In this document: positions 9,691 through 14,802 of the stretch, in pieces
Position numbering within the stretch: position 1 is the stretch's first letter
Layout: every line of letters begins with the position of its first letter
Assembly (NCBI GenBank): GCA_963664705.1
Contig: OY761556.1
Location: forward strand, 2,816,001-2,880,000
DNA: 64,000 nucleotides
Reading direction: 5' to 3'
Source of the DNA: Acidobacteriota bacterium
GTDB lineage: Bacteria > Acidobacteriota > UBA6911
Program-made: the position numbers and the translations under genes
Notes under the pieces: model-generated
What the model saw: only the letters and a program-made list of their open reading frames with translations
What the model was told of the DNA's origin: nothing
Database searches by the model: none

Positions 9691-10308
9691 GTGAATACCA
9701 TTATCGCCAGGAAAGTTCACCACACCGATGCGGAAGGGCTTCCCATCCGCTCTGATTGGGAGAATGCCGTTCCCATCACCTTCTGCGCGGATTGGTGCGC
9801 GGCGAATCCTGATCCCGCGAGACAGACGGAAGTGCGGGCATTGTGGTCACCCGACCATCTCTTTTTGAGATTCTGCTGTCGCTTTCGCGAGATTTTCACC
9901 TATGAAGGAGGAAATACTCACCGAGACGGACTCTGGATGCGGGATGTGGCGGAAGTATTTGTCCGACCAGGAATGTGGGAAACCTCTCACTATCTCGAGT
10001 TTGAGGTCAGCCCCAATGGAGATTGGCTGGATCTCGATATTTCCCCGGACAGGAAAACGATTCTGTATTGCAGCATGAAAACCCGCGTCATCAGGGACGA
10101 CAAATTAAAAATCTGGATCGCTGAAATAGCAATTCCGACGACATGTTTTAATGTGCCGCTGAGTTCCGGCGAATCCTGGCGTCTGAATCTATTCCGCATT
10201 GAGGGCCGTGAACCTGCCCGCTTTTACTCAGCGTGGATTCCAACCCACACTTCAATACCAAATTTTCACGTCCCGGAATTGTTTGGCTCTTTGCTCTTTC
10301 AGGACTGA
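9691..10308 (+). CDS. Carbohydrate-binding family 9-like (DOMON-like) protein
   Basis: TEVRALWS, LWMRDVAEVF, YLEFEVSPNG, WRLNLFRIE and PNFHVPE motifs. Confidence 0.8.
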   Translation: MNTIIARKVHHTDAEGLPIRSDWENAVPITFCADWCAANPDPARQTEVRALWSPDHLFLRFCCRFREIFTYEGGNTHRDGLWMRDVAEVFVRPGMWETSHYLEFEVSPNGDWLDLDISPDRKTILYCSMKTRVIRDDKLKIWIAEIAIPTTCFNVPLSSGESWRLNLFRIEGREPARFYSAWIPTHTSIPNFHVPELFGSLLFQD

Positions 10309-10424
10309 CCGGGCGCCGGCAAGTGCCTATTAGAATTTTAAGTTTCAGATTCCAGATAAAATTTTTATCTCTTGATTGACTGACTCCCGGCTCCTATCTC
10401 CTGCCCGAACGATCAGGTCCCGGC

Positions 10425-10453
10425 TTGACAAAGCTCCTGGCACGACTTAACTT
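10425..10453 (+). promoter_or_regulatory. Sigma70-type promoter TTGACA-N17-TAACTT
   Basis: Perfect -35 at 10425-10430, -10 at 10448-10453; predicted +1 falls at about 10460, the GTG start. Confidence 0.7.
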
Positions 10454-10459
10454 CCATCT

Positions 10460-10810
10460 GTGAACATGATTCGTATGGCAAAAAGTATCGGAATGTTTTT
10501 ACTGGTCTTCCAGATACTTTTTATCTCCACCGGTTTCCATGACCTTACCTGCCATTCTGCCGCGCCGCCCGCAACAACGCCTGCGTCGCAGCGGGAATTC
10601 AGTTCCCCGAAGCTTTTGGACAACCCGGAGACGGATCACTGTAATGCCTGCTTTTTTAACAAACTGCTGAACCAGTGTGTCTTCCCTGCTTTTGAAGGGC
10701 CCTTTATCGCGGAATCATTCATACGGAGAACTCCTCTTTGCCCCGGAAGCATCGTATTCATAGCGCCCGGGAAAACAGGAAACCGCGGGCCGCCATTGCT
10801 CCTGTCTTAA
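10460..10810 (+). CDS. DUF2946-like leader protein (signal/TM, His, CxxC, C-terminal RGPP); candidate ribosome-arrest peptide
   Basis: Hydrophobic N-terminus, FHDLTCH, DHCNAC, C-terminal NRGPPLLLS; directly upstream of metal-uptake genes. Confidence 0.75.
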   Translation: MNMIRMAKSIGMFLLVFQILFISTGFHDLTCHSAAPPATTPASQREFSSPKLLDNPETDHCNACFFNKLLNQCVFPAFEGPFIAESFIRRTPLCPGSIVFIAPGKTGNRGPPLLLS

Positions 10811-10865
10811 CCTCTTTTCAACTCGACTCACAATCTACGTGTCTTATCAGCGCTGGAGAAATGGC
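10792..10865 (+). promoter_or_regulatory. Predicted anti-SD/SD stem coupling the RGPP codons to the downstream ribosome-binding site
   Basis: GCCATTGCTCC (10792-10802) is complementary at 10/11 positions to GGAGAAATGGC (10855-10865). Confidence 0.6.
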
Positions 10866-12224
10866 ATGAATACTGGCGTTTCCGTGGGAATATTGCTGCT
10901 TATCTTGTCAGGAATCACATGTGTCGCAGGCGAACAAAACTCCCCAGCCTCGACTTCAAATCAGACGACCTCGGCAATCGATCAGCTCCGAGCCGAGGTT
11001 GCGCAAATGAAGGCTCAATACGAAAGCCGCATCAAGGATCTGGAAACGAAACTTGAAGAGCTTCAGGCGGAGATGCTGCGCAATGCGCCGGAAACCGGGC
11101 TGCCGCCGACGCCATCTCCGGTATCTGCCTCAGTCCCGGCCAGTGCGGGCGCTATGAATCCAGCAATTTCCGTGGTCGGCAACCTGGTCGGGCGGGCTGA
11201 TTCCCAAAAGGCCTATACCGATGCGGGTCGTCGAATAGATAACAAGCTGCTCCTGCGTGAAGCCGAAATTGACATGCGCGTACCCATCGATCCATTTGCC
11301 GACGGAGTGCTGATAACATCTCTCGAGTCAGAAACCCCCGCCGATTTCTCCGTCGGGATTGAAGAGGGTTATGTGAATATCAAGAAATTTCCATTTCTTG
11401 ACCACCAGCCGCTGGGACTGAAACTCAAGGCTGGTCGATTCCGTCCTCTCTTCGGCAACATCAATGTCCTGCACACACATGACTTGCCGCAGACATTTCG
11501 CCCTCTCCCGGTGCAGGAATTCCTGGGGCCCGAGGGATTTGTTGCAGATGGACTCTCGACCAACATCTTTCTTCCAACGCCGGGGAAAAACGCCAACCTG
11601 GACTTTACCTTTGATGTCCTGAGTGGCGGAAATATCTCTGCTTCGCCAAGCACCGACAGTCGAATGGCCTATCTCGGCCACTTTCGCTATTACAGCACTT
11701 TCGCGGATACACACGATCTGCAGTTGGGATGGTCCAGCTACTTCCACCCGCAAGGAAATGGTATCCGAGAAGCCGACATTCATGACGTTGATTTCACCTA
11801 CCGCTGGAAGCCGCGGCGGATGGGTGAATGGAAATCCTTTGTTTTGGGCGGCGAGTTCATGTTTGGACGCCGCGCGTTTCCGGAAGCCTACGAAACACCG
11901 GATGTGGCAAGAGCCCTGGAGGGAAGGCAACCCGGAGAGGGAAAGCCGCTGGGTTATTACCTGTTTACGCAATGGCAGTTCAACAAGCGAACCTACGCGG
12001 GCATCCGCTGGGATAAGACCGATGTCCTTTTTGACCCGTCTTTGGAGCGGAAAAGCATCACTCCATCCTTTTCCTATTATTTCAGCGAGTTTCTGAGATT
12101 CCGTCTCAATTTTGAGCATCGCTGGAGCGACCTGCCATCGGAAAACAGACGGAATTCGGTTTTCGCTGAACTCAATTTCGTCTTTGGATCGCATCCACCC
12201 GAACCATTCTGGGTCAACAAATAG
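10866..12224 (+). CDS. Outer-membrane beta-barrel associated with metal uptake (often annotated zinc-regulated OM receptor)
   Basis: Signal peptide, coiled coil, NPAISVVG, EAEI...IDPF, KAGRF..FG.IN.LHTHD, SEF.RFR, C-terminal GSHP. Confidence 0.75.
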   Translation: MNTGVSVGILLLILSGITCVAGEQNSPASTSNQTTSAIDQLRAEVAQMKAQYESRIKDLETKLEELQAEMLRNAPETGLPPTPSPVSASVPASAGAMNPAISVVGNLVGRADSQKAYTDAGRRIDNKLLLREAEIDMRVPIDPFADGVLITSLESETPADFSVGIEEGYVNIKKFPFLDHQPLGLKLKAGRFRPLFGNINVLHTHDLPQTFRPLPVQEFLGPEGFVADGLSTNIFLPTPGKNANLDFTFDVLSGGNISASPSTDSRMAYLGHFRYYSTFADTHDLQLGWSSYFHPQGNGIREADIHDVDFTYRWKPRRMGEWKSFVLGGEFMFGRRAFPEAYETPDVARALEGRQPGEGKPLGYYLFTQWQFNKRTYAGIRWDKTDVLFDPSLERKSITPSFSYYFSEFLRFRLNFEHRWSDLPSENRRNSVFAELNFVFGSHPPEPFWVNK

Positions 12225-12243: not shown

Positions 12244-13284
12244 ATGAAGCTCTATAAATTTGCCTTAGGTTTACTGGCGCTTGCCCTGGCTACGCCGGGC
12301 CTGCTCGCTCAACAGAAAAAATTGCAGGTCGTGTGTACATTGCCAACGCTGAAAGCGCTGCTCCAGGAGGTCGGAGGGGACAGGATCGATGCATTTGCAT
12401 TGGCCAAAGGAGACCAGGATCCGCATTTCGTAACCCCGACTCCGGTGCTGATGCGAAAAACCCGTGAAGCGGATTTGTTCATTGAGAATGGATTCTCGCT
12501 CGAGCTTTGGGCTAACGAGGTGGCGAACGGATCCGGCAACTCAAAAATATTTCAGGGTACACCGGGACGCGTAATTGCAGGATCCGGCATTCCGGCGCTG
12601 GAAATACCGGCAGTTCTCACCCGCGAACTGGGAGATATTCATCCGCAGGGCAACCCTCACGTCTGGCTTGATCCGCTCCTGGCCAAGCTGGAAGCGGGCA
12701 ATATCTGCGAGGCCCTGAAGCGCGCGGATCCATCCAACGCGGATTTCTATGCATCGAGACTCGCTGATTTCAACAAGAGGATTGACGTTGCCCTTTTTGG
12801 TCCGGATCTGGTCAAAATACTCGGCACCCAGAAACTGACACGCTTGACCTGGAGTGGTGAACTGCAAAGCTTCCTCGAATCTAATAAGCTCAACGGCAAG
12901 CCATTGTCCGAATTAACCGGGGGTTGGATGAAACAGGCTGCCGCATTGCGCGGTATCAAAGCCGTGGAATTTCACAAAGTATGGGTCTATTTCGCGCGCG
13001 TCTTTGGAATGCAATTGATGGGCACCATCGAGGAACGTCCCGGAATTCCCCCGGGACCGCAGCATGTCCGGCAGGTGGTGGATATGGTGCGCACACAAAA
13101 AATCCCATTGATCATGGTAGACAACTTTTATGATCCAGCCCTCCCCAATAGCATTGCGCGCCAGACCGGCGCCAGTGTGGTTATTCTCCCCAACCAGGTC
13201 GAGGGGGATCCGGGAATCAAAACCTATTTTGATCTGATCGATCATCTGGTTCGTGAGTTGACCGCGGCTTTGAAAAAGAACTGA
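12244..13284 (+). CDS. Transition-metal ABC substrate-binding protein (ZnuA/TroA family)
   Basis: QDPH, ADLFIENG..LE, DIHPQGNPHVWLDP, FH, PGIPP; AGGAG SD before ATG 12244. Confidence 0.92.
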   Translation: MKLYKFALGLLALALATPGLLAQQKKLQVVCTLPTLKALLQEVGGDRIDAFALAKGDQDPHFVTPTPVLMRKTREADLFIENGFSLELWANEVANGSGNSKIFQGTPGRVIAGSGIPALEIPAVLTRELGDIHPQGNPHVWLDPLLAKLEAGNICEALKRADPSNADFYASRLADFNKRIDVALFGPDLVKILGTQKLTRLTWSGELQSFLESNKLNGKPLSELTGGWMKQAAALRGIKAVEFHKVWVYFARVFGMQLMGTIEERPGIPPGPQHVRQVVDMVRTQKIPLIMVDNFYDPALPNSIARQTGASVVILPNQVEGDPGIKTYFDLIDHLVRELTAALKKN

Positions 13285-13287
13285 AGC

Positions 13288-13335
13288 CACGGAAGACACA
13301 AGTACATGCGGTGCCGTTTACTTGTGTCTTCCGTG
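13288..13335. repeat. Perfect 17-bp inverted repeat between binding-protein and permease genes
   Basis: CACGGAAGACACAAGTA / TACTTGTGTCTTCCGTG. Confidence 0.9.
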
Positions 13336-13350
13336 CCCACGAGGCTGAAT

Positions 13351-14802
13351 ATGCATAACCATTTGCTGCACGTGTTGATGGAACTGAAGTGGATGCTGAT
13401 TCCATTCCTCGCTTGTCTGGTCCTTTCCATTAACCACGTGTACCTGGGCATCCATGTCATAGCTCGAAAAGTGATTTTTGTGGATCTGGCTCTTGCGCAG
13501 ATTGCCGCACTGGGAGCCACCTACGCTCTGACGCTTGGCTACGATCCGAATGCCGATTCATTCAAAGTGTCCCTTTTCTCACTTGCATTTACATTTGTCG
13601 GAGCAGGCGCTTTTGCCATCGCACGGATGCGCAAGGAAAGGATCCCGCAGGAAGCCTTTATCGGAATCATCTATGCCGCCGCATCGGCGGCAGCCATCCT
13701 GATTCTGTCGAAATCAGCCAGCGGAGGCGAAGAACTCAAGCACATGCTTGTCGGGGACGTGCTCCTGGTATCGATGCCGAATGTCATCCACATGGCACTC
13801 CTGTATGGGTCGATAGGAATCTTCCACCTGATTTTTCGAAAAAAATTCCTGGCCATTTCAATGGATCCGGAAGGAGCAGAAAACTCCGGAATGAACGTCC
13901 GGTTCTGGGACATTCTCTTCTATATGTCCTTTGGACTTGTTATCACCAAATCCGTTGCGATTGTGGGCGTCCTGCTTGTTTTCTCCTACCTGGTCGTACC
14001 CGCGGTCATCGCGCATATGTGGGCGGACACCATACGCGGACGGCTGCTCCTCGGCTGGGCAATTGCCATCCTTGCAAGCACGCTTGGCATAGTCTGGTCC
14101 TTTTATGCAGACTATCCGACCGGCCCCGCGGTTGTAGTAACTCTTGGAATTTTCCTGATTGCCTCCAGCATCGCGTATTACATCGGCAACGCCGAAGCCA
14201 GGCTCCGGGCGCTAGCGGTGGTTTCCGGCCTCATTCTGTTTGGAATTATCTTTATAGGAGGGCTGGACCACTTCAAAAAAGTGGAAGCCGGGACACCGCC
14301 AGCCAAAATCGATATCGTGGACATGTTCTTGAAGGAACTGGCGGACGACAACCAGTCTACTCAATTGGATGGCGTGAAGCATCTCCAGGAAATGAATGAT
14401 TCCAGGATTGTGCCGGCGCTGGATTCGCTGCTTGTGCGCAGCACATCCGATGAGGTGGTGGAAGCGGTTGTCTCCGCAATGAGTAAACAAAAGGATCCTC
14501 GCGCCATTCCTGCCCTGCGGAAAGCAGCCGCAGGCATTTATGATTTCTTTTTAAAGCTGACTATTGCGGAAGCACAGCTGAATGTTGGCGATCCAGAGGG
14601 TTATGCTACCCTCATCAGCATCATGAAGGAAGATGATGCCGGCTATGCCCGGCATCAAGCCAGTGATTTGTTCGAAAAGCGATCCGGACGAAAGTTCGGA
14701 TACAGTCCGGACCTCCCGGTAGCCGCGAATGGTACCCCCCTGGCGCAGATGGCCGAGTGGTACTCCACAACCGGCCGTCACACAAAGCTGCCGGCAAAAT
14801 AA
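13351..14802 (+). CDS. Metal ABC permease (ZnuB/ABC-3 type) fused to a C-terminal HEAT-repeat domain
   Basis: YLGIHVIARKVIFVDLALAQIAALG, EAFIGIIY, GVLLVFSYLVVPA, DYPTGP; then HEAT-like DSRIVPAL and DPRAIPAL. Start uncertain (13306, 13351 or 13378). Confidence 0.85.
   Translation: MHNHLLHVLMELKWMLIPFLACLVLSINHVYLGIHVIARKVIFVDLALAQIAALGATYALTLGYDPNADSFKVSLFSLAFTFVGAGAFAIARMRKERIPQEAFIGIIYAAASAAAILILSKSASGGEELKHMLVGDVLLVSMPNVIHMALLYGSIGIFHLIFRKKFLAISMDPEGAENSGMNVRFWDILFYMSFGLVITKSVAIVGVLLVFSYLVVPAVIAHMWADTIRGRLLLGWAIAILASTLGIVWSFYADYPTGPAVVVTLGIFLIASSIAYYIGNAEARLRALAVVSGLILFGIIFIGGLDHFKKVEAGTPPAKIDIVDMFLKELADDNQSTQLDGVKHLQEMNDSRIVPALDSLLVRSTSDEVVEAVVSAMSKQKDPRAIPALRKAAAGIYDFFLKLTIAEAQLNVGDPEGYATLISIMKEDDAGYARHQASDLFEKRSGRKFGYSPDLPVAANGTPLAQMAEWYSTTGRHTKLPAK

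Follow-up and report, generated by a model that had tools for sequence, protein, structure and literature searches.

A candidate metal-sensing arrest leader ahead of a porin-ZnuA-ZnuB operon in an Acidobacteriota genome

What is a short open reading frame (ORF), with an export-type N-terminus and an RGPP motif almost at its stop codon, doing at the head of a metal-uptake operon? The ORF occupies positions 10460-10810 (+ strand) of a 64,000-nucleotide stretch of an Acidobacteriota bacterium of the UBA6911 lineage (GCA_963664705.1, contig OY761556.1, positions 2,816,001 to 2,880,000; hereafter the window), where gene order and promoter pattern make it the first gene of a porin-ZnuA-ABC-3 metal-homeostasis operon. 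Here, we propose that it is very probably a regulatory arrest leader of some sort. More specifically, and with a probability that we put at roughly 0.55, we propose that it works as a CruR/CutF-like arrest leader, in which zinc would relieve a stall at RGPP and the stalled ribosome would unmask the ribosome-binding site (RBS) of the porin gene. We call it CruR/CutF-like, and not a member of DUF2946, because it has the descriptive features of those leaders and fails the Pfam profile.

Anatomy and conservation of the leader

The leader can be read from a GTG at 10460, giving 116 aa, or from an ATG at 10466, giving 114 aa; both starts are possible, since the protein database entry begins at ATG 10466. 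Residues ~10-24 (10487-10531, +) form a hydrophobic, export-type segment, as judged by hydropathy and not by a signal-peptide predictor, and by hydropathy alone a 12-residue stretch with a mean of at least 2.0 is present in 86 of the 88 leaders examined. A putative metal site comprises H27, H32, H60, C61 and C64 (10538-10651, +), its CxxC being C61-N-A-C64; C61 is invariant among the 77 aligned leaders, H27 and H32 are at least 90% conserved, and in 86 of 88 leaders at least two His stand after the hydrophobic stretch and before the position of the CxxC. The arrest-type motif R109-G-P-P112 (10784-10795, +) stands 44 residues past the CxxC and four before the stop, from which it is separated by LLLS; R109, P111 and P112 are invariant in the alignment, whose leaders had been chosen by that very motif. 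A first-pass annotation of this DNA had described the same 116-aa ORF, with its hydrophobic N-terminus, His residues, CxxC within DHCNAC and RGPP, and all of these features are confirmed; the 44-residue spacing is added here.

Is such an ORF a regular part of the operon? Neither Pfam nor NCBIfam has a match for the window leader, and Rfam covariance models give 0 matches at E≤1 in 10200-11000. Of 150 homologous loci gathered, 129 remained once 13 duplicates and 8 loci without a callable start had been removed; an upstream ORF counted as a leader if R[AGSP]PP or TSPP lay no more than 10 residues from its end, the CxxC being no part of the rule. Such a leader stands at 93 of the 129 loci (86 of the 110 with at least 500 nt of upstream sequence and 7 of the 19 with less), whereas in the source genome, taken as control, 47 of 4609 genes are preceded by an ORF that satisfies the rule, an occupancy of 78% against 1%; at least two of the matches (L051 and L128) look spurious and are kept in the counts. 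The motif is RAPP in 44 leaders, RSPP in 19, RPPP in 16, RGPP in 13 and TSPP in one. The CxxC is found in 74 of the 93, always 42-47 residues ahead of the motif with a mode of 44, a spacing that in the source genome singles out 1 of 4609 genes, namely the window leader itself. A profile of the family leaders recovers the window leader at E 6.7e-7, a value that is circular by construction, and matches 4173 representatives at E≤0.001. Sequence comparison thus shows the leader to belong to the operon as a conserved element, the homologous loci that the first-pass annotation had proposed to gather having kept the leader, its CxxC spacing and its RAPP-like motif.

These figures bear directly on another alternative, namely that the ORF arose by chance or encodes a small exported protein of an ordinary sort, its complementarity to the porin RBS, described below, being fortuitous. 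The lack of a database family and an unremarkable local folding energy would suit it, but a fixed spacing and an invariant motif kept at 11-26% identity to the window leader, an occupancy so far above background and the strong under-representation of RGPP and RAPP in proteomes, those of Acidobacteriota included, make it very improbable.

A second alternative is that the leader monitors secretion or disulfide formation, in the manner of SecM or ApdA, and not metal. An export segment followed by a RAPP-type motif is the layout of such monitors, the source genome has a RAPP leader ahead of a secD-like gene, and the cysteines of CutF were proposed to form disulfides. Set against this are the conserved His of the leaders and the secD-type leader itself, which has no CxxC at the spacing of the leader family. 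Among the RAPP/RGPP arrest peptides (ApdA, ApdP, SecM and the Streptomyces set; PMC12992588), the Sec monitors have no His/CxxC site at a fixed distance. Moreover, several leaders of another phylum, that of genome G437, replace the CxxC by His and a single Cys 47-49 residues upstream of terminal PK[TQH]SPP-like motifs, which is more in keeping with a metal site than with a disulfide. We consider secretion or disulfide monitoring quite improbable.

Among the loci of that phylum (L161-L190), a plausible leader was seen by eye in 14 of 30. In Sulfurovum mangrovi (NZ_CP087125.1; L160:2306-2662), a His-rich CxxC leader of 118 aa heads the operon; it ends in HAPP and has 69 residues between the motifs. 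The second RAPP leader of the source genome lies outside the window (G000:C1:4943371-4943841, - strand), has ~139 aa and a hydrophobic N-terminus, and precedes a 952-aa gene labelled secD-like on the basis of a motif; with Pro codons CCT CCG and a modest pairing to the downstream Shine-Dalgarno (SD) sequence, it is probably a secretion monitor of a known type.

Predicted pairing between the putative stall codons and the porin RBS

If ribosomes stall at RGPP, what might the stall control? The Pro-Pro-Leu-Leu codons contain an anti-SD arm, GCCATTGCTCC (10792-10802, +), complementary at 10 of 11 positions to GGAGAAATGGC (10855-10865, +), the 3' arm of the putative stem, which consists of the SD (GGAGA) and spacer of the porin gene with its ATG at 10866. 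The first-pass annotation had pointed to this match, and it is found exactly at these positions. Nine of the 11 pairs have a predicted probability of 0.65-1.0, depending on the folded span. No SD-bearing same-strand gene pair of the source genome matches the 10/11 complementarity (0 of 290; best 9), and the duplex energy of -17 kcal/mol is equalled by 8 of the 290. By itself the stem predicted at the window locus is suggestive only; the family carries the evidence.

Because the register of the stem shifts between loci, column-wise covariation was replaced by matched-versus-mismatched pairing, with start codons that were called automatically and are probably wrong in some cases. In 39 loci below 65% porin identity, the duplex between a locus's own 30-nt motif window and its RBS averages -17.3 kcal/mol, against -14.3 kcal/mol for mismatched partners and a GC-binned permutation mean of -14.6 kcal/mol, with 0 of 20000 permutations as low as the matched value. 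For the 85 loci below 90% porin identity, the matched, mismatched and permuted means are -16.1, -13.7 and -14.2. Along the leader, duplex strength peaks at the motif (-16 versus about -11 in the first 22 loci).

The first Pro codon is CCT, which provides an anti-SD CCUCC, in 20 of the 39 loci (46 of 85 in the wider set), compared with 22 of 151 Pro-Pro pairs taken as controls from those operons (15%; P 5e-6; 55 of 343 in the wider set) and with the source genome's Pro-Pro rate of ~32% (P 0.008). A first version of this test had used overall Pro usage; it was redone with Pro-Pro controls because Pro-Pro pairs throughout the genome favour CCT as their first codon (a dicodon bias, 1169 of 3585 pairs against 17% of all Pro codons), and the signal became smaller yet persisted. 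Even when neither Pro codon is allowed to vary, the native codons do better than synonymous recoding in 31 of the 39 loci. The window locus, which uses CCG CCA, places CTCC two codons later as a shifted solution, and some other loci shift the anti-SD arm beyond the stop codon.

To represent a stalled ribosome of the usual footprint, positions -12 to +18 from the first Pro codon were masked. The placement of this mask follows the stall position in PMC12992588. Masking lowers the predicted cost of opening the SD at the window locus from 7.8 to 3.1 kcal/mol (from 5.3 to 3.2 in a shorter span), and in the family it makes the RBS cheaper to open by more than 1 kcal/mol at 17 of 38 loci, as opposed to 9 of 38 for a mask placed upstream (Wilcoxon P 0.005). 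As predicted here, masking of the RBS is a real output, though not one that every locus shares.

Might the main output of a metal-relieved stall be Rho-dependent termination of the CruR kind, the stem playing a secondary part? Past the stop codon lies a C-rich, G-poor intergenic stretch (10811-10850, +; C-G skew 0.53) that is a possible Rho-loading segment, and a skew above 0.3 is found in 28% of 81 family loci versus 7% of 462 control gaps. In addition, a motif scan finds two rho-like genes in the source genome, about half of the loci show no clear opening of the RBS, and leader-to-porin gaps reach 221 nt in the 38-locus set. Rho loading, however, needs neither locus-specific complementarity nor selection for CCT, and the window locus has a gap of only 55 nt and a stem whose predicted occupancy is high. 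We place Rho as the main output decidedly on the unlikely side, noting that Rho and RBS-masking outputs can coexist.

Which metal, and how the proposed switch might work

What metal would such a leader sense? The only plasmid-collection match of the porin is a Vibrio campbellii replicon (L159), which carries the same three genes at 24, 26 and 28% identity to those of the window, with no leader by the motif rule and with two one-mismatch gammaproteobacterial Zur-box cores less than 70 nt from the start versus 0.05 expected, this being the one gammaproteobacterial locus at which Zur boxes were checked. The V. parahaemolyticus porin is 85% identical to its V. campbellii homologue and, judging by this homologue, gene order and name, probably belongs to the operon omr-znuAII(vpa1307)-znuBII, which shares with the window the three-gene, ATPase-less layout and a homologous porin family (PMC9817125, PMC3794297). 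Unlike the operon of the window, it is reported within the Zur regulon, and zinc limitation induces its genes 1034-, 543- and 283-fold (PMC9817125); vpa1307, which we take as the binding protein of the operon, aids growth under zinc depletion (PMC3794297). In NCBIfam the window operon comes closest, though below the cut-off, to two zinc proteins, AztC and AztB. Zinc is our best guess for the metal, drawn from a single locus with Zur boxes, a single expression table and distant homology.

The same arrest-and-unmask switch could instead sense copper, nickel, cobalt or manganese, or several metals. CruR senses copper with a CxxC at a comparable spacing, the binding protein of the operon has five conserved His in place of ZnuA's hallmark three, His-only CutF-like clusters adjoin nickel/cobalt genes, and similarity to the Vibrio operon is low; the five His and the copper role of the CruR CxxC in particular leave other metals some weight. 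The V. campbellii Zur boxes, the zinc-limitation induction in V. parahaemolyticus, the below-cut-off AztC and AztB matches and an operon without copper genes all point the other way, and we hold another metal to be unlikely.

In light of these observations, how might a zinc-relieved, RBS-unmasking leader work? Transcription would be constitutive, from the promoter predicted at 10425-10453, and translation of the leader would be accompanied by co-translational export, its hydrophobic N-terminus likely engaging the Sec machinery while the ribosome stalls, as predicted, at RGPP. The stalled ribosome would cover the anti-SD at 10792-10802 and so leave the porin RBS free, with the uptake operon on. 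A metal, most likely zinc, would then bind the His/CxxC cluster 44 residues upstream, a site that would sit just outside the ribosome exit tunnel, whereupon the chain would fold and the stall be released; the stem would close and the uptake operon would be silenced. The metal is taken to relieve, and not to induce, the stall because an uptake operon should be on at metal scarcity and stalling opens the RBS. RGPP is described as the strongest and most robust arrest in several contexts (PMC12992588). We infer the stalling at RGPP, the sign of the metal effect and the identity of zinc.

Several findings weigh against this reading. The window leader has no DUF2946 (PF11162) match at E≤1. Of the loci with sufficient upstream sequence, 24 of 110 have no leader, and a crude scan upstream of 27 leaderless loci saw no shared operator or palindrome. 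At the window locus, five short local segments show no folding advantage over shuffled sequence (z -0.18 to 0.89), and the pairing of the native stem is equalled by 7-8% of synonymous recodings, so that a single locus is no proof of selection on the stem. The family loci are related and non-independent, and P values overstate accordingly. Conservation of the stem in homologues, a further earlier expectation, holds in that complementarity is locus-specific across the family, but the duplex is weak (-6.6 kcal/mol) in L071, the closest relative with upstream DNA (74% porin identity), and only 17 of 38 loci open the RBS by more than 1 kcal/mol on masking; the claim that a stalled ribosome frees the RBS is accordingly borne out by prediction at the window locus and in part of the family. 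Finally, the CxxC binds copper in CruR, and the Vibrio proteins are only 24-28% identical to those of the window, for which reason the substrate is something that we infer from them.

Compared with characterised leaders, the input side would resemble CruR and the output side CutF. CruR of Bordetella pertussis (Bp2923; DUF2946/PF11162), in which CxxC and motif are spaced by 45 residues, conserved within one or two (PMC9426467), is likewise the first gene of a metal-uptake operon and combines an export signal, a CxxC and a RAPP-type C-terminal motif at nearly the spacing seen here (45 versus 44), with what would be the same logic of a stall at metal scarcity. The window leader differs in its RGPP, its added His and its lack of a DUF2946 match; leaders of its type head a porin-ZnuA-ZnuB operon in Acidobacteriota-related genomes, whereas CruR heads a TonB receptor; and CruR acts via Rho and copper, whereas the evidence here favours RBS masking and a metal that is likely zinc. 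The earlier assignment to the DUF2946 type stands in part: the CxxC, the RAPP-type motif and their spacing agree, and 12 of the 77 aligned leaders match the profile at E≤0.5 (best E 1.7e-6), but the window leader misses it, and 1 of the 40 top leader-profile matches scanned fits it weakly, below the cut-off. In Caulobacter, a DUF2946 gene lies in a Zur-affected efflux cluster (PMC4176598).

CutF of Rhodobacter capsulatus is also an exported leader, at which a stalled ribosome melts a stem shielding the next SD (10.1101/2022.11.11.516240, 10.1101/2025.02.05.636593). It has, in contrast, a CxxxC, a PPP tail, a copper-induced stall and a detoxifying oxidase downstream, while here the sign would be opposite and the anti-SD overlaps the stall codons. 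Set beside the filters published for CutF-like leaders (fewer than 150 aa, PP in the last 15 residues, a signal peptide and a same-strand gene within 1000 nt; 10.1101/2022.11.11.516240), the window leader has 116 aa, PP at 111-112, a hydrophobic N-terminus and a 55-nt gap, and a stem that shields the SD is predicted at its locus and reflected in the family statistics.

What would this mean if true? It would join the input logic of CruR to the output of CutF in the first zinc-responsive arrest peptide in nature; in the literature found, nascent-chain metal sensing is shown only for copper (CruR and CutF), and the leader family is a zinc candidate. The same operon has Zur boxes in Vibrio and a stalling-type leader in Acidobacteriota and other phyla, a natural control, and this suggests how lineages without a clear Zur, such as the source genome, could regulate zinc uptake. 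In that genome, Fur and PerR, and not Zur, are the best-scoring assignments for the two Fur-family proteins, and the surroundings of the leader contain no gamma-type Zur box, the consensus being gammaproteobacterial and possibly different from an Acidobacteriota Zur motif. We offer the widest form of the proposal tentatively, judging it a little short of even odds: a widespread zinc-sensing nascent-chain switch would replace Zur, with a leaderless, constitutively transcribed upstream ORF (uORF), zinc-induced folding 44 residues from the catalytic centre that would pull the ribosome off the RGPP/RAPP stall, and Pro codons that selection had made to serve also as anti-SD (CCUCC) for a porin-ZnuA-ZnuB operon without an ATPase. 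The mechanism lends itself to testing by a few point mutants, given the constant 44-residue spacing and the anti-SD signal at the level of codons.

Our literature search, with most subscription journals out of reach, found no zinc-responsive arrest peptide, and the supplement text of PMC9973294 (8,054 characters) held no match. The full CutF-like list of PMC9973294, Table S1 of PMC9426467 and files 8/10 of PMC12992588 may already hold members of the leader family. The pairing of leader and porin gene is in fact already in print as data, the supplement of PMC12992588 (2025) listing at least nine RAPP uORFs before like-named porin genes, one of them annotated DUF2946; that work pools the gene class as TonB-related, and zinc sensing, a stem or a porin fold are absent from its accessible discussion. 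The earlier statement that no characterised case heads a ZnuA/ZnuB-type operon survives, within that search, for zinc arrest peptides, but the gene pairing itself is not new.

Two minor observations touch on zinc regulation. The leader family weakly matches DUF2607 (P0123, P0154, P0160 and alignment A2; below the cut-off). DUF2607 corresponds to ZrgD, encoded at one end of the V. parahaemolyticus zrg operon, which is zinc-induced (PMC9817125); ZrgD may itself be a leader of the kind seen ahead of the porin operon. In the source genome, a Fur domain is fused to a rubrerythrin/ferritin-like domain (G000:C1:1994023-1994991).

Promoter and downstream genes

A sigma-70-type promoter is predicted from the sequence at 10425-10453 (+), with TTGACA (10425-10430), a 17-nt spacer and TAACTT (10448-10453). 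The -10 element ends 6 nt ahead of GTG 10460, and transcription would start at ~10460. A consensus scan for promoters and terminators at the locus gave 0 sites, because the -10 matches the consensus at 3 of 6 positions only. Sigma-70-like patterns occur upstream of 31 of 75 leaders as against 0 and 1 in two control windows, and the distance from the -10 to the first in-frame start is 6-10 nt in 25 of 30 leaders; leader mRNAs are therefore likely to be leaderless or nearly so.

The first gene after the leader, which the first-pass annotation had read as an outer-membrane barrel starting at 10866, is borne out as a predicted 16-stranded porin (10866-12224, +) by an AlphaFold2 model, Foldseek and hhalign. 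It belongs to no Pfam family. An alignment-based model (141 sequences), which replaced a single-sequence fold with a predicted local distance difference test score (pLDDT) of 36.9, reaches a pLDDT of 93.7 and has 16 long strands in 360 residues; its best Foldseek matches are the porins OmpM1, OprO/P, Omp32 and OmpF, and hhalign relates the family to the V. parahaemolyticus homologue with 99.8% probability. Searching the sequences of solved structures with the porin profile gave nothing meaningful, and ESM Atlas returned mostly unnamed clusters and one 'porin family' cluster. A TonB-dependent receptor is a 22-stranded barrel with a plug domain, and this identity was rejected, the model having 16 long strands and matching porins; the predicted fold indicates that 'zinc-regulated TonB-dependent receptor', a label in wide use, covers a porin-type barrel. 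The nearest named relatives are mostly Acidobacteriota metagenome assemblies and some Binatia; of 401 genomes in the window's phylum, 129 have the porin gene, as do 82 of 151 genomes in a different phylum, and viral collections gave no loci.

There follow a ZnuA-family solute-binding protein (12244-13284, +; PF01297, E 1e-46) and an ABC-3 (ZnuB-type) permease with C-terminal HEAT repeats (13306-14802, +; PF00950, E 8e-38, and PF13646, E 9e-11). In the binding protein, four His are shared by 88 of 88 homologues and one more by 85 of 88; two of the conserved His, in DIH and QHV motifs, are beyond the usual three, and its metal site may be unusual. The HEAT repeats (14300-14802) are found in the closer subfamily of permeases (~490 aa) and not in the distant one (~280-300 aa). 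No ATPase gene follows the permease, the next ORF being glyoxalase-like; a motif scan of the 129 loci, most of them with short flanks, finds 2 ATPase-like ORFs adjoining the operon, and the Vibrio operon is also without one. A complete ABC-3 system with an ATPase is encoded elsewhere in the source genome (G000:C1:6376000-6380542).

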